A stretch of DNA of 64,000 nucleotides. It comes from Nanobdellota archaeon. Lineage in GTDB: Archaea; Nanobdellota; Nanobdellia; Woesearchaeales; GW2011-AR9. Under the pieces are notes generated by a model. The model did no database searches, had not been told where the DNA came from, and saw only the letters and a program-made list of their open reading frames with translations. Positions 322 through 40,552 of this stretch are shown here, in pieces. The position numbers and the translations under genes were made by a program. The stretch is taken from contig JAUYPX010000018.1 in NCBI GenBank assembly GCA_030697505.1, forward strand, positions 3,265 through 67,264, written 5' to 3'. Position 1 is the first letter of the stretch; each line of letters begins with the position of its first letter.

Positions 322-1085
322 CTCTTAAAATACTTTCTTGGAATGTGAATGGCATCCGCGCGGTATGGAAAAAAGGTTTTCTTGATTTTGTCAAGGCAGA
401 AAATCCTGATGTCCTGTGCATTCAAGAAACCAAAGCGCATCCTGATCAAGTCGACCAAAAATTAACGGAATATGAGCATCACTTCTGGAATTCGGCAGAA
501 AGGCCCGGATATGCGGGAACGGCGGTGTTTAGTAAAGTAAAACCAATTTCAGTTCAATATAATTTTGGCCAGAAAGAAAATCACAAAGAAGAAGGAAGGA
601 TCATCACCGTAGAGTTTGCAGAATTTTATCTGGTGAATGTGTATACGCCGAATTCCGGGCGAGAGTTATTGCGCCTCAAGTATAGGGAAGAATGGGATAA
701 GCTATTTTTGAATTACGTTTTGAAACTGGAAAAGAAAAAACCAGTGATTATCTGCGGCGACTTGAATGTTGCGCATACCGAGATCGATTTAGCAAATCCC
801 AAACCGAATTACAACAAAACAGCCGGGTATATGCAAGTGGAGATCGATGGGATACAACGGATCATTGATGCGGGGTATCTTGATTCCTTTCGGGAATTTG
901 TGAAGGAGAAGGGATATTATACTTTCTGGAGCCAGATGTTCAATGCCCGGGCGCGAAATGTAGGCTGGCGGATAGATTATTTCTTAGTATCTCCGAAAAT
1001 ACGCAAGAAATTGAAGAAAGCGTTTATACTTCCCTCGGTGATGGGATCGGATCATTGTCCGGTTGGGATTGAGTTGGAAGGTTAA
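318..1085 (+). CDS. xth: exodeoxyribonuclease III / AP endonuclease (ExoIII family)
   Basis: Motifs LSWNVNG, CIQETK, ICGDLNVAH, WRIDYF and SDHCP match the EEP-fold Xth/APE1 family. Confidence 0.8.
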   Translation: MTLKILSWNVNGIRAVWKKGFLDFVKAENPDVLCIQETKAHPDQVDQKLTEYEHHFWNSAERPGYAGTAVFSKVKPISVQYNFGQKENHKEEGRIITVEFAEFYLVNVYTPNSGRELLRLKYREEWDKLFLNYVLKLEKKKPVIICGDLNVAHTEIDLANPKPNYNKTAGYMQVEIDGIQRIIDAGYLDSFREFVKEKGYYTFWSQMFNARARNVGWRIDYFLVSPKIRKKLKKAFILPSVMGSDHCPVGIELEG

Positions 1086-1115
1086 TCTTAAAAATTTTAA
1101 TTTCCAAACTGCTCA

Positions 1116-1748
1116 CTAATGATTTAATTTATAATTTGCCCCATTAAGTCTACGATTCAATCTATTTAGTATATCATTTGCATGATTTAACCTGCGATTT
1201 GCAAGTACCAGCCTGTCGTTTGCTGACAACATTCGGTAATCTAAAAGTTCCTTACACACTTGAGGAATCCTCTTTGCGTTGTCTAGCATCTTTCTCCCCT
1301 TATAGAACATGTCTTCAAGTTCTGGCTGCGGTAAAGGCTGATCAGGGACTGAGCTAAAACTTCCTGAAGGATCCCGCCAAAAAGGGACATAATCCATATT
1401 TTTTCCGTCAACAGCAAGAACAGCGTTGATCTGCATGGCATCTTTCCGCGGACCGGCAAATTCACGCATCACCATAAAATGTTCAGGGACAGGCCGCTGT
1501 TGCTCATCACACTGATAAAGTTCATCAAAGAAATGTTTTTCTTTTTGAGCAATATGGTAGCAAAACTTTCCTGCACCTTTAACTTCAAATGATGCAGAAA
1601 AGCCAACTTTTTTAGTTAAATCTAAAGAACGGCAATCTGGTTCTCGAGGTTCTGGAGCTGGTGTTGGTACTTTTGCTGATAGTGCAGCAGGAGCACAACC
1701 CATAGCTGCGACCATAGCATATATAGAAAGATAATTTTGTGGATTCAT
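1116..1748 (-). CDS. secreted lipoprotein, paralog A of a tandem pair
   Basis: Signal peptide with lipobox-like Cys (AAMGCAP). Shares blocks DCRSLDLTxKVGF, REFAGP and DYxPFWRDxSG with the adjacent ORF. Confidence 0.4.
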   Translation of the reverse strand: MNPQNYLSIYAMVAAMGCAPAALSAKVPTPAPEPREPDCRSLDLTKKVGFSASFEVKGAGKFCYHIAQKEKHFFDELYQCDEQQRPVPEHFMVMREFAGPRKDAMQINAVLAVDGKNMDYVPFWRDPSGSFSSVPDQPLPQPELEDMFYKGRKMLDNAKRIPQVCKELLDYRMLSANDRLVLANRRLNHANDILNRLNRRLNGANYKLNH

Positions 1749-3311: not shown

Positions 3312-4438
3312 TTCTTGGGTTGCACAATCTTTTTATGTACATGAACTTTTTTTGCCCTATGCAAGAAGAGCTGCTCCTGTTGGCCAATCCCAATGGCAAA
3401 AATGTCACTCCGCAAAAGATCAAGAGATTGCAAGACATCTTCCTGGAAGGAAAGGGAAAATTACAGACTACCTTGATTGTGACTAAAAATCTTTCTCAGC
3501 TCGAAAAAGTGATCACAGAATATAAAAGAGGAGGAACAAGCACGGTAGGCATCATCGGCGGCGATGGCACAGTCATGCATACCAGGACCTTGATAGAGAA
3601 CATCTGGGGTTATGCGCCGAGATATGCGTTCTTTCCACTGGGCACTATGAACAATATCCATCGCGCCCTAGGCCTGGGCAGATCCGATTCTTCTATTAGA
3701 TTAGCTCAGCATATGGTAACTGCCGCCGGCAATGATGCGCTGAAGGAATATACTATCTCTTTTCCTTCGTTAGATGCCAATGGGCGAAAGGGTTTCAATA
3801 TAGGCTTTGGGCTAATACCTAAGTTATTATGGCTGTACTATGGACATACCGCCAAACAGTACCGGGAATTAGAGGAAGCATTGCAACATTCTCCACCGAA
3901 AGAATATCAAGCGAAGTACAAAGAGATCACCAAAAAACAAGAGACTGACCTGTTTGATCTTTTATCCGAAGAACGGGGATTATGGGGAGCGGTTAAAACT
4001 ACGCTGCGATTGATGAATGGATTACGAAACTATACTGACGAGAGATATTTGCTCCATAAGCCTCTTTCCGGCGGGATCAGCTTTGATGGGCAACGGCAGC
4101 ATTTTCCCAAAGCGCCATTAGGCTTATACATCTCTTGTTACCAAGAAACCAATCTAGGATTAGGGCCTTTCAATCCCAAACCGGCGCCGGAAGCAGGAAA
4201 AGAGGAAGGGAAATTTCAGGCAGTGGTCCCTTATGGGAATCCATTTTCGATCATGCCGCAATTGCTAAAGGTCATAGCGGGGGGAAAGCTTTCCAATGCT
4301 GTCTACCAACAAGTTTCTTCGGCAGAACTTCCTTCCGAAAAATTTGCGCAGGTAGATGGAGAAATAATCTTAGAAAAAGGATTTAAGGTAAGCTATGACC
4401 GCAAACGAGAGATCATCTGCCTACCTGCAGCTGGATAA
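3308..4438 (+). CDS. lipid kinase of the diacylglycerol kinase catalytic domain family (YegS/DAGK_cat-like)
   Basis: GGDGTV motif after a beta-alpha stretch (VGIIGGDGTVMH). The true start may be the internal Met at 3359. Confidence 0.45.
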   Translation: MILGLHNLFMYMNFFCPMQEELLLLANPNGKNVTPQKIKRLQDIFLEGKGKLQTTLIVTKNLSQLEKVITEYKRGGTSTVGIIGGDGTVMHTRTLIENIWGYAPRYAFFPLGTMNNIHRALGLGRSDSSIRLAQHMVTAAGNDALKEYTISFPSLDANGRKGFNIGFGLIPKLLWLYYGHTAKQYRELEEALQHSPPKEYQAKYKEITKKQETDLFDLLSEERGLWGAVKTTLRLMNGLRNYTDERYLLHKPLSGGISFDGQRQHFPKAPLGLYISCYQETNLGLGPFNPKPAPEAGKEEGKFQAVVPYGNPFSIMPQLLKVIAGGKLSNAVYQQVSSAELPSEKFAQVDGEIILEKGFKVSYDRKREIICLPAAG

Positions 4439-6989: not shown

Positions 6990-7394
6990 AACTTTGTTGT
7001 TAAAGGCTTTCAGTAATTTAAAGAAAATCCTGAAAAGCAGCTATCCCCAGCCCTAAAGGGCGGGGATTTACGCAAGAAAAGTGACAGCGATCACTTTTCT
7101 GCGCAGAAATGAGATATTCTTCGCATTTCTTGCGCCGCTTTTCCGAGACGGATTTTCTAAAACAAGAAAAGAAACAAAGATTTCTTTTCTGTTCAGAAAT
7201 AAAGTAGTTTCTTTATTTCATGAATCAAAAATAGCGAAATCCATGCGAGCATTCACTCGCATTCGCACAGAAAGACGACGATCTTTCTGGCGTCCAAGCA
7301 AAGTCGTTGCTTTGCTCAGGACATCCCTAAACATAAATGTTAGGGATTTCTGCTTTTTTGATTTAAGCTTTTAGGAAAAACGGGGACAAAAAAG

Positions 7395-10500: not shown

Positions 10501-12327
10501 TTATCTTCTTAATCTCTTCCAATACTTTTTTATCTTCTGAAGTTTTATTTGAGATAAGACCAGCATCACCAGAACTCCAAGAATAAATCCTTGCAGCCGA
10601 TCATAGTTAATAGTTAATTTGTCAGATAGTTGTTGAGTAAAGGTTTTCTCTTCCGGAAAATAAATTCCCAAGTCGCTCATCTCTAAGGCATATTCCAAGT
10701 AGAACAACGAGGTTACCGGCTCTTGTTCTTTCAAAGAGGTGGCATACTGATAATATGAATATCCTAAAATAGGGAATTTGCCTTCGGCAGTATTTTCCGC
10801 AATGACACGTTTAACCGCGGTCATTTTACTCTGCAATACGTCAGCTAATTCGTCTTTTCCTAATCCTAAAGTGCTGAGCACAGCGTTAGCATCTCCTTTT
10901 GCCTGGATCGCTTTCATCAGGCAAAGCTCGTATTCATTTTTTTGTGAAGCATCTTTTGCTGCAGCAATTTTCTTGGCGATCGCCCCCACATTGCTTTCTC
11001 CAATAAAGAGACCTATGTACTGCTCCCGCTCTTCCGCTTCCTGGATTTTTTGCAGGCAAGACCGTTGCAGATGTTCTTTATCCAAGACTAATTTTTTTCC
11101 AGGCATAGAAAAGAATTGAGTCCAGGCTACCGCAGAGAAATACCGCTCTTCGCTATAACTCAAGATGCCGTATGCCTCTTCTTTCTTCTCTGTATCCCGG
11201 GGCATTTCTTTAAATTGGGCAAGCTGTTCCTTTACATCGTTAAGACGGTCTTTTACGATAATCAAAGTCTGTAGATCAGTGATTGTTTCTATTTTTTGTA
11301 AAGATACATTTTGTTCTAAGGATCGAACCCTATCTTCCAATCTCAAGAATTTATCCCAAAGCTTGGAAAGAGTCAGTTTTTTTTGGTTATAATAATGGGA
11401 ACGCAAGGCGATGCTGGCAGTAAAGCAATAACTGGCAGCAGAATAATAATCTTTCTGCAGAGTAGCATTATCCGCTTTTGCTTTTTGTTCTTCTATTCGT
11501 TGGGAAACATTTTCATCAAGCCGAAGGCCTTCTTGATATAATTCAAATTCTATCTTTTCTGCCCGGGTACAGAGGAGATCACGCAAATCACTCATGATCT
11601 GCGTATATTCTTTATCTTCTTCTACCTTTATCTCTTTTTGATTAAGATTTTTTCCAGTAAGATGAAAGACCACTTCGTCAAGATCGCTTACTTCCACCAC
11701 TTCGATATTGAGATTTTCTGCGGCATATTGAGTAAGATTGAGATATTTTTGTACAGAAGTATTATTGCTATTGCTTTGATTGCTGCGGTCAGTATTCGTT
11801 TCTGGCAGAGGCACAGCCGTCCCTTCTGCGATAAGCACCTTGGTAAGGCCTAAATGTGAAGCAGCTTCAATTTTTTCTTTGGTGCCGCCGACCGGGCCGA
11901 CAATGCCGCCAGAGTTGATCGTCCCGGTGATGGCAGTATCGCCATTATGATAGTCTAAATCTAACACCGCGATGGTGGTTAACGCTGCGATAGCGGCTCC
12001 GGCGGAAGGCCCGCCGATAATATTGGTTTGCGCTTTGATGGTATATATAAAATCATATTTCTGGCAGGGCAGCTTGTATTGATGACAGGCAATCTCTTTG
12101 GCAAATCGCGTCGAAATCTGAGTGTCCATTTTAGGGACAGGAAAAGTGTCCAGGAAAACTCTGCCTGATCCTTCTTTTAGTTCCAGGTAGAGATCAGCCC
12201 CGCTGCCGCTGAGCGTTCCATTGGGATTTTCCTGAACCGCCAACAGTTTAAGCGTGTATTGTTTCTGCGCTAAGGCCGAAGAGCTGAGAAGCAGTACTAG
12301 CAGTAAAAACCACCACATCTTTTTCAT
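10501..12327 (-). CDS. secreted S16-family (Lon proteolytic domain) serine peptidase
   Basis: N-terminal signal peptide. Lon catalytic Ser motif GGPSAGAAIA and the Lys-region GGTKEKIEAA....VLI, which parallels Lon GGLKEKLLAA...VLIP. A C-terminal TM helix is present. Confidence 0.6.
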   Translation of the reverse strand: MKKMWWFLLLVLLLSSSALAQKQYTLKLLAVQENPNGTLSGSGADLYLELKEGSGRVFLDTFPVPKMDTQISTRFAKEIACHQYKLPCQKYDFIYTIKAQTNIIGGPSAGAAIAALTTIAVLDLDYHNGDTAITGTINSGGIVGPVGGTKEKIEAASHLGLTKVLIAEGTAVPLPETNTDRSNQSNSNNTSVQKYLNLTQYAAENLNIEVVEVSDLDEVVFHLTGKNLNQKEIKVEEDKEYTQIMSDLRDLLCTRAEKIEFELYQEGLRLDENVSQRIEEQKAKADNATLQKDYYSAASYCFTASIALRSHYYNQKKLTLSKLWDKFLRLEDRVRSLEQNVSLQKIETITDLQTLIIVKDRLNDVKEQLAQFKEMPRDTEKKEEAYGILSYSEERYFSAVAWTQFFSMPGKKLVLDKEHLQRSCLQKIQEAEEREQYIGLFIGESNVGAIAKKIAAAKDASQKNEYELCLMKAIQAKGDANAVLSTLGLGKDELADVLQSKMTAVKRVIAENTAEGKFPILGYSYYQYATSLKEQEPVTSLFYLEYALEMSDLGIYFPEEKTFTQQLSDKLTINYDRLQGFILGVLVMLVLSQIKLQKIKKYWKRLRR

Positions 12328-12375
12328 AAAGGTAAGAAGAATTTTTAGGATTATAAAGGTTTTGGCTGGTACTAA

Positions 12376-12876
12376 TTACGGGCTTAGAATTTTTTCCAAG
12401 CCTAACTGTTTGAATTTTTCCGGATATTGTTTCTGGTACTGTTCGGCAAATTCATGCAATTCTTGCTGATAGAGTTTCTTTTCTGTTTCCAGAAGCTGGC
12501 CATGAGTGGAATCATTACTTTGAGTATTGAAAGTCCCTTCAACTCCGCCGATGCTGAACCAGGGTTTTTCTATTTTCACAGCATCCAGAATCCCGTCACG
12601 ATTGCTGTCACTATAGCGTCGATTGCCCCGACCAAAAGGATCGGTACGGTATAGGACAAGATCATTTCTGGCGTACGAAATCTCTATGCTGCTATGAGCA
12701 ATCCACCAGCCATCTTTCTTGTATAAGGTAAGTGTGTAAGGAGAATCCTCCATCACGTTAGTATGAGCAACAGAATTCCATAGCGCAGGACCACTCATAG
12801 TTATGGCGGCAGTGATGGTGCTTCCGATTAACATACGTTTATTTTCGGATACTACTTCGCGCAGCTTTTTGAACAT
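12376..12876 (-). CDS. hypothetical secreted protein
   Basis: ORF with an N-terminal hydrophobic segment. Confidence 0.3.
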   Translation of the reverse strand: MFKKLREVVSENKRMLIGSTITAAITMSGPALWNSVAHTNVMEDSPYTLTLYKKDGWWIAHSSIEISYARNDLVLYRTDPFGRGNRRYSDSNRDGILDAVKIEKPWFSIGGVEGTFNTQSNDSTHGQLLETEKKLYQQELHEFAEQYQKQYPEKFKQLGLEKILSP

Positions 12877-12939
12877 CAGAAGTACATGACTTGAAGAAGA
12901 TATAAGGATTCTGATTAAACAGTATAATAGTGAATATAC

Positions 12940-13392
12940 TTATTCTACCTTCTTAACCTTACCCATATCCTTATGCCAGACCTGCACTTTCTTTCCGGTC
13001 TTGGCATGCTGGAGCATCACTTTCTTGCCGGACATGATCACGTTATAGGTTTCGTCGTGATATTCGACCTGGTCGCCTTTCTTGAAAGGCACGGCCCGGA
13101 AGAGGACCGTTAAGCGATAGACCGGCTTGCCTTCCTTGCGGGTGAACAAAGTAGCGGTTACGACAAATTCTCCACCATATTTTTCCTGTAAGGTCTTACC
13201 TAGATTTTTAGTCAGATTAGCATTGCCCAGATAGTAGTCATGGCCGTTGGTGACCGGCTTTACTTTGGCTACAAAAATGTTCTTCTTTCCTATTTCTTTA
13301 TCCACAAAAACGATTATCTCATCTGTGACATTACGTAATTGTAAGATCGCCTCATAGTACTCGGAATGCTTGCCGTGGATCGGTTTGACCAT
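12940..13392 (-). CDS. hypothetical protein; its first 29 nt are duplicated at 14016-14044
   Basis: ORF MVKPIHGKHS... The start codon sits at the edge of a 29 bp direct repeat. Confidence 0.4.
   Translation of the reverse strand: MVKPIHGKHSEYYEAILQLRNVTDEIIVFVDKEIGKKNIFVAKVKPVTNGHDYYLGNANLTKNLGKTLQEKYGGEFVVTATLFTRKEGKPVYRLTVLFRAVPFKKGDQVEYHDETYNVIMSGKKVMLQHAKTGKKVQVWHKDMGKVKKVE
13364..13392. repeat. 29 bp perfect direct repeat, copy 1 (gaatgcttgccgtggatcggtttgaccat)
   Basis: Identical to 14016-14044. Together they flank a 623 bp two-gene cassette. Confidence 0.9.
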
Positions 13393-13407
13393 TTTTCGAG
13401 AGGATAA

Positions 13408-13722
13408 TTAGGCCGGTATGATCTTTATTCCATTGTCTTCTGGAATTATGGTTACTTTTTCGTCATTTCTGAAATGGTACCTCTCAACTAATTCTTTGGG
13501 AATTCTTACGCCTAAACTCAGGCCCCATTTGGAGAGCTTAGCATGATATTTTCTCATCTCCCTATAAACTTGAGCAACATCATGCAATTGTTTCATGTTG
13601 ACGATTTCCTCTCCGCACTTCTCGCACTTGAAATATTTATATTCAACACCTTCAGGCGTTTCGTCTACGAGCTCTGCCATTTTCCCATTACATTCAGCGC
13701 ATTTTTTCATGTTGGTTTTCAC
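13408..13722 (-). CDS. putative antitoxin: N-terminal CxxC..CxxC zinc ribbon fused to an AbrB/MazE-like swapped-hairpin domain
   Basis: CAECNGK...CEKCGE followed by LSLGVRIPKELVERYHF..EKVTIIPEDNGIKIIP, an AbrB/SpoVT fold signature. It overlaps the upstream DUF4258 ORF by 4 nt. Confidence 0.45.
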   Translation of the reverse strand: MKTNMKKCAECNGKMAELVDETPEGVEYKYFKCEKCGEEIVNMKQLHDVAQVYREMRKYHAKLSKWGLSLGVRIPKELVERYHFRNDEKVTIIPEDNGIKIIPA

Positions 13723-13949
13723 CTTTTTGTTTCGATAGTTATGATTTTTATTTTAACCCCGACAATTTCTCCGACACAGATCACTGTAAAGTTTTTGTAC
13801 TCCTTCTGAAACTTCAGGTTGTTTTTTCCAAAGCTCTGGATTTTGCCGCCTTTCAGCGTAGCTTCAATCATATCGGGAGTTACGCCGCGCTGCATGGCCC
13901 TGATGAAAGCGTGCCGCTTGAGTTCAATCTCGTACTTAGTCCTGTCCAT
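13719..13949 (-). CDS. DUF4258-family putative toxin
   Basis: HAxxRxxxRGV motif (HAFIRAMQRGV) and the length are typical of DUF4258. Confidence 0.45.
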   Translation of the reverse strand: MDRTKYEIELKRHAFIRAMQRGVTPDMIEATLKGGKIQSFGKNNLKFQKEYKNFTVICVGEIVGVKIKIITIETKR

Positions 13950-14015
13950 TCTTCTCCCTCAAACATATCAAATGATATCATAAGATATATTTAAATGTTT
14001 CTTGACAAAATATAA

Positions 14016-14044
14016 GAATGCTTGCCGTGGATCGGTTTGACCAT
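14016..14044. repeat. 29 bp perfect direct repeat, copy 2; encodes a truncated duplicate of the N-terminus (MVKPIHGKHS) of gene 12940..13392
   Basis: Exact match to 13364-13392. The downstream reading frame terminates after about 17 codons. Confidence 0.9.
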
Positions 14045-14102
14045 GGTTTGCTAGAAAGAGGGGAATATATTTTAAGGTTTCTGGGAAAAATTGAGTAAAG
14101 AT

Positions 14103-14110
14103 TTTTAAAG
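14103..14110 (+). promoter_or_regulatory. archaeal TATA-box-like element about 26 nt upstream of the ATG at 14132
   Basis: tttttaaa at the canonical -26 distance from the start codon, implying a leaderless transcript. Confidence 0.35.
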
Positions 14111-14131
14111 GATTACTAACCTAAACGTTTC

Positions 14132-14710
14132 ATGAACAGAAATCTAGATAATTTTGAAAAGTTTTGTAGATTAACTGATGAGGGCTTTGAGGCAGAAGGA
14201 GATTTTTATAAAAGTCTACATTCATTGCTCAAAGCTAATTCAATAGACGCAGCAATTAGAGAATTTCCTCAAATTGGTGGAGGAGCTTGTTATTCAATAG
14301 AAATACCAGACAAGAAAATAAAAGTATATGGATTCCTCTCTTATGATATTTCTTCTTCTTATTTTTTAGGGTTAGAAGATTTTGATAAACAAATTACAGA
14401 AGAACCAAATATAAGTGAATTAATTCGAAAAGCTTCTGATCCAAAAATAATTGATTTAGTAGCAAATAATGCTGAAAATTTTTGTATAGGCACTTATCGT
14501 AGTATTGATAATATCTTAATTGATCCTAAAAATAGTATTCCTCAAATTATGGCTTATCAACCTAAAACTAATTGGTTAAATATAACATACCAATTTTTAC
14601 AAAATAATTCTGTTGATGATATTGTTGAAGTAGTAGGAAATAAAATGGAAGAAATTAATAGTGGTTGGTTTAAAACAATTCGGAAATATGTTAAGAAACT
14701 TATTGGTTAA
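14132..14710 (+). CDS. hypothetical protein
   Basis: ORF with an upstream TATA-like element. Confidence 0.35.
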   Translation: MNRNLDNFEKFCRLTDEGFEAEGDFYKSLHSLLKANSIDAAIREFPQIGGGACYSIEIPDKKIKVYGFLSYDISSSYFLGLEDFDKQITEEPNISELIRKASDPKIIDLVANNAENFCIGTYRSIDNILIDPKNSIPQIMAYQPKTNWLNITYQFLQNNSVDDIVEVVGNKMEEINSGWFKTIRKYVKKLIG

Positions 14711-14718
14711 AATTTATC

Positions 14719-14916
14719 TCACTTCCTTCTCGTCCTTCCCTTCCCGCCAACTTTATACGGAGTGTATCTTCCTTTCTCTTTTTGAGAAGTCCGCTCTCCT
14801 ACGAATGTTCCTTCCACCAGCTCATCATAGCCGCAGCTTTTGCAAGTAAGGAACTGAATATCTTCCTTATGCACTATGACGTTGAAAGAGCCGCATTGGG
14901 GACATTTTGGCTTCAT
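14719..14916 (-). CDS. small zinc-ribbon protein with a basic C-terminus
   Basis: CPQCGS...CKSCGY plus a C-terminal KGRTRRK. Confidence 0.35.
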   Translation of the reverse strand: MKPKCPQCGSFNVIVHKEDIQFLTCKSCGYDELVEGTFVGERTSQKEKGRYTPYKVGGKGRTRRK

Positions 14917-15042
14917 GGGATTTAGGTAAACAATTATTCTTTAAAAAGATTCATAAAAATTTACTAAATTTTTAGACGTTTTTGCTCATAAAATTCACAA
15001 AAACATTCATAAACATTTTTAAATGCACTCTAGATATACTTT

Positions 15043-16211
15043 CTATGTTAACACCCGAAGCTAAAGCAGAACTAGAAAAGCAGCAATACCGTATCGTAGG
15101 CAGCCACAGCGCGGTGAAGACCTGCGGCTGGACTAAGAATATGATCAATGGCGAAGGAGGCTGTTACAAGTTGAAATTCTATGGTATCATGAGCAACCAA
15201 TGCATGCAGATGACGACTAGTATCAGCTGCGCCAATAGATGCACCTTCTGCTGGAGAGGATACAAAGCACCAGTTTCCAAGGAATGGAAGTGGTCTGTAG
15301 ATGAACCAGAGATGATTTTAGAAGAAAGTAAAAAAGCGCATCACAAATTGCTGATTGGGTTTAAAGGATCACCGGTAGCGAATAAAGCTGCCTATGAAAA
15401 ATCCACCCAGATCAGGCATGTGGCACTATCGTTGACGGGTGAACCGATCACCTATCCGAGGATGAATGAGTTGATCGACGGATTTCACAAAGATCATATC
15501 TCTACTTTTTTGGTCACTAACTCACAGTATCCAGAGCAGATCAAGAATCTAAAACCTATCACTCAATTATACTGCAGCGTGGATGCGCCGACCAAAGAGA
15601 TGCTCAAAGAAGTGGACAAGCCTTTATTTCTCGATTTCTGGGAAAGGATGATTCTAAGTTTGGATTATTTGGCGCAGAAAAAACAACGCACCTGTATCAG
15701 ATTAACCATGATCAAACACATCAATATGACCGCATTGGATCAGTACGCAGAATTAATTAAACGGGGAAGTCCTGATTTTCTGGAAGTGAAAGCATACATG
15801 CACGTCGGCCCGTCACAAGAAAGACTGAGCAAAGAGAATATGCCTTTGCATGAAGAAGTGATTGTATTTTCCAAAGAATTAGTACAACATCTGCCCGAGT
15901 ATGAGATCGTCTCAGAACATATCGCTTCCAGGGTAGTGATGTTTGCCAAGAAAAAATACAAAGTTGACGGTGTCTGGAAGACTTGGATTGATTTTCCTAA
16001 ATTTCACCAGCTCTATGATGAATATCTGAAAACTGGAACAGAATTCACTTCTGACGATTACCTGCTCAGAACACCGCAGGTAGGATTGAGCGGCAAAGGG
16101 ACATTATATCACATGCCGGAAGAGAAACGCAAGAAGTACCTGATAGAACACCCGGAAGCGCATGTCTTTGTGGATGAACAGACCCAGGAATTGAGTTTTT
16201 ATGAGGGGTAA
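15043..16211 (+). CDS. taw1: tRNA 4-demethylwyosine synthase (radical SAM, TYW1/Taw1 family)
   Basis: Radical-SAM CxxxCxxC (CANRCTFC), upstream Cys cluster (KTCGW...GGCYK), LSLTGEPITYP and CSVDAP blocks typical of TYW1. Start chosen at the Met 25 nt after a TATA-like box (15015-15025); the ORF could extend to 14982. Confidence 0.7.
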
Positions 16212-16213
16212 AG

Positions 16214-16221
16214 TTTATAAA
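16214..16221 (+). promoter_or_regulatory. archaeal BRE/TATA element (aaag tttataaa) about 26 nt upstream of the ATG at 16244
   Basis: Canonical TATA at -26 with an A-rich BRE-like sequence upstream; supports archaeal transcription signals. Confidence 0.4.
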
Positions 16222-16243
16222 TATAGCCACTTATATACTTACT

Positions 16244-16468
16244 ATGGCAACCACCATACAAGTCAGCAGGGATCTATTAGAAACTCTACAGAAAAGAAAG
16301 CTCTACAATAAAGAAAGCTATGAAGAAGTGATCTGGGATTTAGTAGAGGATTCTATGGAATTAAGCGAAGAGACCAAACGAGACATTGAGAAAGCGCGCG
16401 CAGAGATTAAAGCTGGAAAATTCTACACTCACGAACAAGTTAAAAAGAGGCTTGGCTTGAAAGTTTAA
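16244..16468 (+). CDS. putative antitoxin partner of the RelE/ParE toxin
   Basis: Small acidic protein immediately upstream (13 nt) of the RelE-like ORF. Confidence 0.45.
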   Translation: MATTIQVSRDLLETLQKRKLYNKESYEEVIWDLVEDSMELSEETKRDIEKARAEIKAGKFYTHEQVKKRLGLKV

Positions 16469-16480
16469 GAGAGTGATTTT

Positions 16481-16738
16481 GTGTATACTTTAATTTATTC
16501 TGAAAAGGCAGATAAACAATTGGGAAAGCTGCCCAGTGATATTAGAGAAAGAATAATCATTGCTTTAGAAAGGCTACGAATACGCCCTGAATCGTGCGAT
16601 ATCAAAAAACTAGTAGGTGTGGCAGGATATAGATTTAGGGTTGGTGATTATAGGATTATCTTTGATAAGGAAGAAGAAAAATTACTTATCTTTGTTATTA
16701 AAGTAGGACATCGAAAGAATATTTATGATAATTATTGA
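16481..16738 (+). CDS. RelE/ParE-family type II toxin
   Basis: YRFRVGDYRIIF...LLIFVIKVGHRKNIY matches the RelE/ParE core. Confidence 0.6.
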   Translation: MYTLIYSEKADKQLGKLPSDIRERIIIALERLRIRPESCDIKKLVGVAGYRFRVGDYRIIFDKEEEKLLIFVIKVGHRKNIYDNY

Positions 16739-23156: not shown

Positions 23157-23238
23157 TTGTGACACAAGAAATCAAACGAAGATTTGATTTCTGTGCAGAA
23201 GGACAATGTCCTTCTTGCATAAATAGGCTAGAAAGCAT

Positions 23239-23325
23239 TCGCACAATAAAGCAACGACTTTATTGGCGCATGAGATCAGGAAACTACCCGATTTCAGCGC
23301 AGAAATAAAGTAGTTTCTTTATTTC
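23239..23325. repeat. two AATAAAG-N6-7-CTTTATT hairpin modules (23239-23270 and 23301-23325), diverged members of the structured repeat family seen at 28.6 kb and 40.3 kb
   Basis: cagaaataaagtagtttctttatttc is shared verbatim with 7194-7222 and 40373-40397; gcacaataaagcaacgactttattggc parallels 40476-40500. Confidence 0.7.
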
Positions 23326-23534
23326 TTGCGTCCCAGAAAAATCGTTGTTTTTCTGTGGACATCCTCGTCTTAAAAGACGAGGCTTTCTGCCTATTTAATG
23401 TAAATAAAGAGATAACCTATTCCCTAGACCACAAGAAGGCTGAGCCTTCTGTGCCGAAGGGATGTATCCCTTCGAGCACCAAAAACTTTAATAAGCACAA
23501 TAAAATCGTAAGCCAAAGGGGTGCGTGAAAAAAG

Positions 23535-28624: not shown

Positions 28625-28625
28625 T

Positions 28626-28897
28626 AAAATCTGCTTTTTCCACCAGTGTCCTGAGAAGCGAAGCTTCTGGGATGCCAATAAAGTAGTTTCTTTATTGTGC
28701 ATATTTCACTGGTGGTAAATCGTTGATTTCACCTTGATTGGAAAAAGCAGGGTCGGAAATTCGACCGAGCGAAGCATGAAATAAAGAAACTACTTTATTT
28801 CAGCACTGAAAATTAATCGTTGTTAATTTTCATGTGTTTCTTTTCTTGAGCGACCATGCCACTGGTGTGTTCGCCAGTGGTGTCGAATTTCTTTGAC
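28626..28897. repeat. about 272 bp highly structured element, copy C; inverted copy of 40277-40548
   Basis: Reverse complement matches copy D end to end at about 95% identity. Contains several hairpins: ccaccagtg...cactggtgg, two AATAAAG..CTTTATT modules, ccactggtg-tgttcg-ccagtggtg, and a long-range pair ctgctttttcc/ggaaaaagcag. Confidence 0.85.
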
Positions 28898-40276: not shown

Positions 40277-40548
40277 GTCAAAGAAATTCGACACCACTGG
40301 TGAACACACCAGTGGCATGCTCGCTCAAGAAAAGAAACACATGAAAATTAACAACGATTAATTTTCAGTGCTGAAATAAAGTAGTTTCTTTATTTCATGC
40401 TTCGCTTGGTCGAATTTCCGACCCTGCTTTTTCCAGCCTAGGTGAAATCATTGATTCACCACCAGTGAAATATGCACAATAAAGAAACTACTTTATTGGC
40501 ATCCCAGAAGCTTCGCTTCTCAGGACACTGGTGGAAAAAGCAGATTTT
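40277..40548. repeat. about 272 bp highly structured element, copy D; inverted copy of 28626-28897, lying between convergent gene ends
   Basis: See copy C. Contains gctgaaataaagtagtttctttatttcatgc and cacaataaagaaactactttattggc hairpin modules and the ccactggtg-aaca-caccagtgg hairpin. Confidence 0.85.
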
Positions 40549-40552
40549 ATAT

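Follow-up and report, generated by a model that had tools for sequence, protein, structure and literature searches.

How does a small addiction module come to stand between a conserved gene and its promoter, with a copy of the gene's start on either side? The question is raised by a locus in contig JAUYPX010000018.1 of an uncultured Nanoarchaeota/Woesearchaeota-type (DPANN) archaeon, of which a 64-kb stretch (the window) was analyzed. A 623-bp toxin-antitoxin (TA) cassette is inserted there at the 5' end of a gene for an NMD3-related protein and is flanked by two copies of the 29-mer GAATGCTTGCCGTGGATCGGTTTGACCAT. An earlier note, made from the letters of the window, had described a perfect 29-bp direct repeat that copies a gene start, the second copy being truncated, and both statements were borne out. 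The two copies, the only ones in the window even when three mismatches are allowed, are exact, and the bases beside them differ on both sides, which sets the repeat length at exactly 29 nt; no match was obtained in 100 shuffles. The 29-mer is plain coding sequence and shows no dyad symmetry. Read along the minus strand, the native promoter comes first, followed by the upstream copy, toxin, antitoxin, 15-nt tail, and downstream copy with the start of the NMD3-related gene. The upstream copy opens only a 17-codon open reading frame (ORF), MVKPIHGKHSYILSRNI (14044..13991), whose stop codon lies within the TATA box of the cassette.

A structure of this kind could be created by an assembler that threads a small circular element into a contig through a k-mer shared with the chromosome, and 29 is among the k values common in metagenome assemblers. 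The Logan contigs of run SRR13727529, assembled with k=31, bear directly on this. L001 corresponds to positions 12154-13656 and L002 to 13735-15703. Both match the window at 100% identity, and in each of them a single repeat copy is embedded in unique sequence to its left and right. Since this k is longer than the repeat, the repeat-cassette structure is not an assembly artefact; the same architecture was also found in eight independent assemblies of another species (L163-L170, see below), and the chance of an artefact is negligible.

The earlier note had proposed to look in related genomes for an empty site, and such sites were found. NMD3-family profile scans of species-representative genomes and JGI metagenomes gave 160 loci, of which at least 14, from Woesearchaeota, carry the conserved promoter (…CCAGAAACCTTAAAATATA…) joined directly to one copy of the 29-mer and the gene body, i.e., exactly the structure of the window minus 652 bp. 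No toxin or antitoxin gene was found in any of the 160 NMD3-family loci. Because these relatives have the promoter, a single 29-mer, and the NMD3-related gene, the cassette is an insertion with target duplication. The repeat is not a generic motif, as in ~1.2 Mb of related DNA the 29-mer occurs at NMD3 gene starts only. The target protein, for which 88 homologs were found (source name "NMD3-related protein [Nanoarchaeota archaeon]"), has an N-terminus, MVKPIHGKHSEYYEAILQLR, that is conserved across 38 homologs. None of the relatives has the exact 29-mer of the window, the closest differing at one synonymous site, and both window copies carry the allele of their own genome; as the perfect repeat matches this allele, it was in the window lineage that the gene start became duplicated or the duplication was renewed. 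The coordinates of the features are given in Table 1.

Table 1. Features of the inserted cassette, its target, the second insertion in the window, and comparison loci (positions are those of the window unless a locus is named).
Feature	Position	Strand	Basis or remarks
NMD3-related gene, 150 aa, insertion target	12940..13392	-	Pfam NMD3, 7.8e-12
Downstream 29-nt copy	13364..13392	-	Functional gene start, ATG + first 9.7 codons (MVKPIHGKHS) of the NMD3-related gene
Inserted TA cassette, 623 bp	13393..14015	-	Own BRE/TATA (B recognition element/TATA box) promoter, operator, toxin, antitoxin, 15-nt tail TTATCCTCTCGAAAA
Antitoxin, 100 aa: N-terminal 4-Cys zinc ribbon + C-terminal AbrB/MazE/SpoVT swapped-hairpin DNA-binding domain	13408..13710	-	PF04014, family alignment
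Toxin, 76 aa, DUF4258-like, predicted RelE/ParE-superfamily fold	13719..13949	-	Motif H13-A14-x2-R17-x3-R21-G-V
Cassette promoter and putative operator	13962..13995	-	Between TATA and toxin ATG; conserved block
Upstream 29-nt copy	14016..14044	-	Pseudo-start beside native promoter
Native NMD3-related promoter CCAGAAACC TTAAAATATA	14045..14081	-	Joined directly to gene start in at least 14 empty-site loci
Reconstructed empty site of window			…AGCAAACC + 29-mer + CGAGTACTAT…
Empty-site loci			L003, L004, L005, L007, L009, L011, L012, L083, L085, L087, L088, L090, L096, L098
Second case, copy 1, 23-nt duplication	16190..16212	+	Last codons + stop of TYW1 (14982..16211)
Second TA cassette	16213..16733	+	Own promoter TTTATAAATATA, antitoxin-like gene + ParE/RelE toxin
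Second case, copy 2 ATTGAGTTTTTATGAAGGGTAAA	16734..16756	+	Beside original downstream flank
VapBC cassettes, 5' end AAGTTATACAAGTTATAC	L084 1131-1843; L086 155-842; L006 1800-2515; L093 1330-2037		

The locus had been taken in the earlier note for a recent acquisition, and a single event private to this lineage was not supported. A look-up of the closest toxin homologs showed that three other lineages also have this cassette upstream of NMD3. In L163-L170, which belong to a species whose NMD3 shows 89% amino acid identity to that of the window, the order is promoter, decayed pseudo-start, left junction …CATTC/TT…, TA pair, an extra VapBC pair, and NMD3; the pseudo-start, ATGGTCAAACCAATCTACGACAAACATTC, has His>Tyr and Gly>Asp changes, and the flanking repeat spans 32 nt with 28/32 identical positions. 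In L171/L172 the TA pair, VapBC, and NMD3 (75.6% nucleotide identity to the window) are present with no recognizable upstream copy, and the L171 cassette is 91.5% identical in nucleotides to the window over 14018..13392, a span that ends exactly where the repeats place the cassette borders. L173 has a more diverged cassette directly upstream of NMD3, also with no recognizable upstream copy. Relatives with the same arrangement and diverged repeats, which the earlier note had named as evidence of an ancient structure, are thus represented in part, by L163-L170; the window repeat still matches its own allele.

An ancient structure inherited vertically would imply a single ancestral origin, with the empty sites arising by precise deletion and the identity of the repeats being kept up by gene conversion. 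The shared junction with a decayed repeat in L163-L170 is what such descent would leave, and an antitoxin remnant in L093 shows that the cassette is deletable. Empty sites would, however, have to be explained for no fewer than 14 lineages, the more distant L096 among them. Moreover, the TYW1 tree groups L163 with the cassette-free L008, L010, and L083 and places the window on a separate branch, so that the TA-bearing lineages are not sisters. Third-codon-position identity between the window and L163 or L171 is 79-86% for the TA genes and at most 66% for NMD3 (66% between the window and L163), the TA genes being markedly less diverged at these positions. The L173 cassette at the same site has a third-position identity of 58-60% and is as distant as the copy at a different locus, that of a signal-peptide-peptidase (SPP) gene. 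Taken together, these comparisons make vertical inheritance distinctly unlikely. Because the tree separates the TA-bearing lineages and the TA genes are less diverged than NMD3, the cassette has moved between lineages after their divergence.

The cassette is mobile. Its family, DUF4258-TA, also adjoins unrelated genes (SPP, DUF192, ion-channel, and SQS_PSY), and the empty sites, the coincidence of the cassette borders with the borders of homology, and these varied contexts uphold the original description of an insertion footprint around a discrete mobile TA module. The NMD3 start itself is an insertion hotspot, where DUF4258-TA, VapBC, and other small ORFs are stacked directly upstream. VapBC (PIN) alone replaces the NMD3 promoter in L006, L084, and L086, its stop codon lying 1 nt before the NMD3 ATG, and in L008/L010 (~3700-4000) a small ORF of ~97 aa lies between the promoter and the NMD3 ATG. 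The near-conspecific loci L093 (1270-1345) and L171 (1814-2455), with flanks 94-98% identical, differ by the swap of 41 nt for 618 nt. L093 has no TA cassette and retains a remnant resembling the last codons and tail of the antitoxin, so that the cassette can be lost by imprecise deletion. Upstream of the cassette, beside the hotspot, L171 (1-1380) shows a local rearrangement: compared with the window, the Zn-ribbon gene and a 5' fragment of TYW1 stand in inverted orientation, and part of the Zn-ribbon gene is duplicated.

The inserted DNA (GC content 38.8% vs 41.3% for the window) is predicted to be a self-contained type II TA pair, in which the first protein would be toxic and the second would neutralize it. 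Two small, co-oriented, adjacent genes form one operon with its own promoter, and a Shine-Dalgarno-like GGTGA lies within the toxin stop. They had been described as exactly two overlapping small genes. The two co-oriented genes stand, and the overlap does not if the antitoxin starts at ATG 13710, which the family alignment favors over the GTG ORF 13408..13722 (104 aa); with this start, toxin and antitoxin are 8 nt apart. In the public annotation (P0092, 90 aa) the antitoxin start is placed 10 codons too far downstream, which costs the protein the first CxxC of its zinc ribbon.

The assignment of the cargo to a DUF4258 toxin and a Zn-ribbon/AbrB antitoxin, for which a profile check had been proposed, was confirmed for the antitoxin and came out less clearly for the toxin. 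The antitoxin matched PF04014 MazE_antitoxin with 31.4 bits, above the gathering score of 24.7, and the "addiction module antidote" TIGR02609 with 3.4e-5, below its cutoff. The family alignment showed invariant C4, C7, C29, and C32 in the N-terminal half and a conserved MKKC start, and the family profile matched AbrB/MazE/SpoVT structures in the PDB (7d2n_E, 2.7e-5; MazE 2mrn/1ub4). The toxin matched DUF4258 with 18.6 bits (E 0.0024), below the gathering score of 25, though 38 of the 42 toxin family members matched it at E<=0.01. Its AlphaFold2 model from the family alignment has a pLDDT (predicted local distance difference test) of 92.9, and the top Foldseek matches were RelE toxins (1wmi_A, prob 0.97, E 0.02, and a modest TM of 0.46), followed by MqsR and HigB. 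Sequence comparison of the toxin with the PDB gave no match, NCBIfam and PADLOC added nothing for it, and exact-protein look-ups of the window toxin and antitoxin returned none; that of the NMD3-related protein led to the same organism only.

The TATA box of the cassette, TTTAAATATA (13986-13995), is followed by a perfect 10-bp palindrome, ATGATATCAT (13972-13981), and a half-site, TTGATATG, and this promoter/operator block, TTTAAATATATCTTATGATATCATTTGATAT, is conserved in L163, L171, L173, L174, and L189. The palindrome stands where an autoregulatory operator would be expected, and the antitoxin probably represses its own operon. This organization resembles that of MqsR-MqsA, HigB-HigA, and DUF4258 pairs, in which a small toxin, here one with a predicted RelE fold, is encoded first. 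A putative palindromic operator in the promoter of the pair is a further shared trait, and as in MqsA the antitoxin joins an N-terminal zinc-binding module to a C-terminal DNA-binding domain. In contrast to these systems, the DNA-binding domain of the cassette antitoxin is of the AbrB/MazE/SpoVT and not the helix-turn-helix type, the expression signals are archaeal BRE/TATA elements, and the toxin has only 76 aa and stays below the DUF4258 gathering threshold. The family is an uncharacterized, ordinary-looking pair, probably of the RelE-fold/AbrB kind, and literature searches found no experimental test of any member of the DUF4258-like/AbrB TA family.

The earlier note had also suggested a search for other cassettes flanked by similar repeats, and the signature proved to recur. 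Direct repeats of at least 22 nt, 250-4000 nt apart, were sought in 1.24 Mb comprising the window and related DNA. A second case lies in the window itself, at the 3' end of TYW1, where the two 23-nt copies are identical at 22/23 positions. They enclose a TA cassette unrelated to the DUF4258-TA pair, made up of a 74-aa antitoxin-like gene (16244..16468) and a ParE/RelE toxin (16481..16738) that matched PF05016 ParE_toxin with 42.3 bits, above the gathering score of 23, and whose stop codon lies within copy 2. L096 is the empty site for this 23-mer, with a single copy followed by the same downstream sequence, and homologs of the second cassette lie downstream of TYW1, without a repeat, in L010, L012, and L014.

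Further footprints were found in other genomes. In L174-L176 (L174 3349-4027) the 3' end of a convergent SPP gene holds a DUF4258-family cassette, which is bounded by a 35-nt repeat (32/35). The upstream copy retains the old SPP C-terminus and stop (…LALGVVWAIGLLM), and the working SPP gene ends in three cassette-derived codons. No SPP ortholog was found in the related DNA collected, and thus there is no empty site for the SPP case; L174 and the empty NMD3 site L005 belong to the same metagenome-assembled genome. In L141 (370-1290) the duplication measures ~70 nt (30 nt perfect) and takes in the promoter of TYW1 together with its first codons. It encloses a PBECR2-like toxin (885..1172) and a 74-aa partner (664..888), both in the orientation of TYW1, an arrangement also seen at NMD3. 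In L120 (1546-2582) a 328-aa ORF is bracketed by a perfect 29-nt repeat that copies a gene start (…AAAATGACTCAACCACAAAT, MTQPQI), and both flanking proteins share the first residues and have no Pfam match. The duplications are thus 23, 29, 29, 32, 35, and ~70 nt long. Within the 64-kb window there are two different TA cassettes, both with an empty/filled pair and a long target duplication, and ~1.2 Mb of related DNA adds four footprints.

With regard to the machinery responsible, the earlier statement that no integrase is nearby was confirmed. Pfam searches of 27 ORFs between 318 and 24170 (within ~13 kb of the cassette) found no integrase or transposase; the neighboring ORFs with Pfam matches are housekeeping genes, and several neighbors had no Pfam match. 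Terminal inverted repeats were not found at 13393/14015, nor were conserved ends beyond promoter and gene sequence, and a classical transposon or miniature inverted-repeat transposable element (MITE) was rejected on this ground and because the duplications, at 23 to ~70 nt, are not of fixed length. Neither an attC-like imperfect palindrome nor a 28-bp XerC/D-type site was found at the cassette border, nor any IntI/Xer nearby. An integron or Xer/pdif module was accordingly discarded, in the absence of attC or dif-like sites and with repeats that are coding sequence lacking dyad symmetry. There is no tRNA gene in the window, which excludes one as the target. Local alignment of the NMD3 and SPP repeats was no better than that of shuffled sequences (p=0.31) and gave no common target motif; with unrelated target repeats and no integrase found, an integrase-mediated element with a shared att core was likewise set aside, though an enzyme acting in trans may have a part. 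Viral or plasmid carriage of the cassette was rejected after protein-profile and promoter/operator DNA pattern scans of IMG/VR gave no match to the cassette family and tblastn searches found nothing in phage records and only an unrelated AbrB domain in plasmids.

A variant of the transposon idea is a non-autonomous, MITE-like element mobilized by a trans-acting transposase whose staggered cut is unusually long. It would account for direct repeats of target sequence around a discrete unit that is present in several contexts, and for long variable duplications there is a precedent in IS1630 of Mycoplasma, with target duplications of 19-26 bp (cited in PMC2853133). The cassettes, however, lack terminal inverted repeats and show no conservation at their ends other than that of promoter and gene sequence, the signature is shared by different TA families with unrelated ends, the duplications range from 23 to ~70 nt, and no transposase was seen nearby. 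Mobilization of this kind is therefore highly improbable.

The main rival explanation is a Campbell-type integration, in which a 652-bp circle carrying one 29-mer (attP) would recombine with the gene start (attB) by means of an integrase acting in trans or of homologous recombination. The direct repeats would be regenerated at each integration, excision would be precise, and the circular junction would read …CTCGAAAA + 29-mer + TTATATTTTG…. Such a process would readily give the identical left junction in two species whose repeats each resemble their own allele, the perfect repeat of the window, a cassette whose conservation exceeds that of its flanks and whose homology stops at the borders of the repeats, and the recurrence of insertions at the NMD3 start. 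Against it, no integrase was found in the cassette or within ~13 kb of it, the 29-mer is simply coding sequence without dyad symmetry, the targets duplicated elsewhere are unrelated and of variable length, and the cassette family was not found on viral contigs, phages, or plasmids. The model also leaves unexplained how the first target copy entered the element. On balance it is unlikely to be the correct account.

We consider it probable that the TA cassette was inserted, with its 29-nt target duplication, through host recombination or repair and microhomology. Of the two mechanisms that the earlier note had offered, a site-specific recombinase is disfavored by unrelated targets and variable repeat lengths, and microhomology is compatible with the junctions. 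A self-contained addiction cassette entered the NMD3-related gene 29 nt from its 5' end, and host recombination or repair would have joined this DNA, arriving in linear or circular form, by way of short microhomologies. With the two joints at target positions that overlap by 29 nt, this stretch was duplicated, the downstream copy keeping the gene intact and the upstream copy being left as a dead pseudo-start behind the native promoter. Later exchange among related species at the same locus would probably proceed by homologous recombination through the conserved 29-mer and the flanking genes, and the cassette can be lost again. Both the enzymology and the direction of transfer are here what we infer. 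It is proposed that footprints lie at gene termini because in gene-dense genomes only gene-end insertions with a frame-restoring duplication would survive.

The junctions offer some detail. At the left joint of the DUF4258 cassette there is an ATTC microhomology, and ATTC is also found at the left end of the copies in L171, L173, and L174; the joints of the second cassette, compared with L010, L012, and L014, show AAA and ATT. The substitution-type outcomes at the NMD3 hotspot fit two independent illegitimate joints, which would give a duplication when they overlap and a deletion otherwise. Several observations weigh against insertion by microhomology. The microhomologies, at 1-4 nt, are weak evidence for an enzymology that is itself conjectural. 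The window and L163 share the identical left junction …CATTC/TT…, yet their repeats match their own alleles; as two independent random events would not share this base, the coincidence needs common descent with lateral transfer and homogenization, Campbell-type re-integration, or a site preference. Among the nine contexts of the DUF4258-TA family surveyed, five have no flanking repeat, so that the duplication is either not obligatory or quickly erased. Finally, 29 nt is just under the >30 bp criterion of Furuta et al.

As a broader and rather doubtful possibility, Woesearchaeota, and perhaps DPANN archaea generally, may share a common recombinase-independent (or unknown enzyme-driven) route for the uptake of small cassettes, mostly TA modules. 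These would be inserted among the first or last codons of housekeeping genes, produce duplications of 23 to ~70 nt, and capture the host promoter, leaving an essential gene (the NMD3-related gene or TYW1) behind or against the cassette. The duplicated gene end might then serve as a portable homology patch for same-locus hops between species and for precise excision.

At the NMD3-related gene the insertion would have altered transcription. The TATA box of the native promoter lies at 14066-14075, and the 21 nt between the box and the ATG suggest that the transcript was originally leaderless. This promoter would now read through the 17-codon pseudo-ORF into the TA operon. The ATG of the NMD3-related gene lies 15 nt behind the antitoxin stop, and no promoter or terminator-like element was found between the two. 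As the gene has no promoter of its own, its transcription would have to pass through the cassette, from the native promoter, the TA promoter, or both. The perfect repeat would in turn permit precise excision of the cassette.

Beyond the native promoter, ORF192 (14132-14710, plus strand), a gene with no family match, has a GC content of 27% vs 41% for the window. No homolog was found in related loci, an exact-protein look-up gave the same organism only, and no flanking repeat was found around this low-GC ORF. In relatives, the interval from the Zn-ribbon gene to the NMD3 promoter is occupied by differing genes or by none, and the divergent promoter block CTTTAAAAATCTTTAC is conserved.

Long target duplications around modules lacking mobility genes have been described before. 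Furuta, Abe and Kobayashi (2010, NAR; PMC2853133) reported restriction-modification (RM) modules free of mobility genes and flanked by repeats that are single at the empty locus, with examples of 44-47 bp. The mechanism was unknown, the cases were mostly from competent species, and the duplication of >30 bp was a screening device and not a mechanistic limit. In a review of RM and TA systems, long-duplication insertion is mentioned for RM only (Mruk and Kobayashi, 2014; PMC3874152). The present case agrees with this class (see also Gene 259:99, 2000) in that an addiction module without a mobility gene, here of 623 bp (<20 kb), is inserted in a chromosome and its direct repeats, of long and variable length, align to the single copy at the empty locus of a relative. 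Gene fusions at the joints are likewise shared, here as the new SPP C-terminus and the RelE stop codon. It differs in that the cargo is a type II TA and not an RM module, so that DNA cutting by the cargo cannot be invoked, in that the hosts are DPANN archaea and not bacteria, and in that the footprints lie systematically on gene termini. The 29-nt and 23-nt repeats are also below the >30 bp threshold, with related cases at 32, 35, and ~70 nt. Long-target-duplication insertion, documented for RM modules in bacteria, is here extended to TA modules and archaea.

Two other classes of elements are comparable in part. Integron cassettes and Acinetobacter pdif modules are also small promoter-proximal modules, often TA, stacked at one chromosomal position, whereas here the repeats are the target gene's own coding sequence and only 15 nt follow the antitoxin stop. 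In integrative elements of the tRNA-gene or icd type, similarly, the insert is flanked by the duplicated end of a gene that continues to function; the cassettes described here differ from these in the absence of an integrase, an insert of 623 bp, unrelated targets, and the use of both 5' and 3' ends of protein genes.

The movement of TA modules without plasmids, phages, integrons, or transposons is largely unexplained, as is gene acquisition in DPANN archaea, and exact junction sequences are now available from which a mechanism can be inferred. The locus further suggests that a housekeeping gene can become transcriptionally dependent on a selfish cassette. Should the mechanism be ordinary microhomology-mediated repair, the locus would be a tidy example and not a surprise.

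Apart from these insertions, the window contains other repeats. A segment of 11.4 kb lies between two 273-nt inverted repeats (28625-28897 and 40277-40549) that are 97% complementary. The palindromic unit AATAAAGTAGTTTCTTTATT within them is also present in repeats of ~64 nt at 7069-7222, 23161-23328, and 40336-40399, and L115 has several copies of a similar end sequence, ATTAAAATCTGYTTTTTCCACCAGTGT. At 1116-2283 two adjacent minus-strand ORFs of 210 and 175 aa, the first with no Pfam match, share diverged direct repeats (1344-1406 vs 1879-1941, 75%; 1587-1641 vs 2119-2173, 73%) and are probably tandem paralogs.

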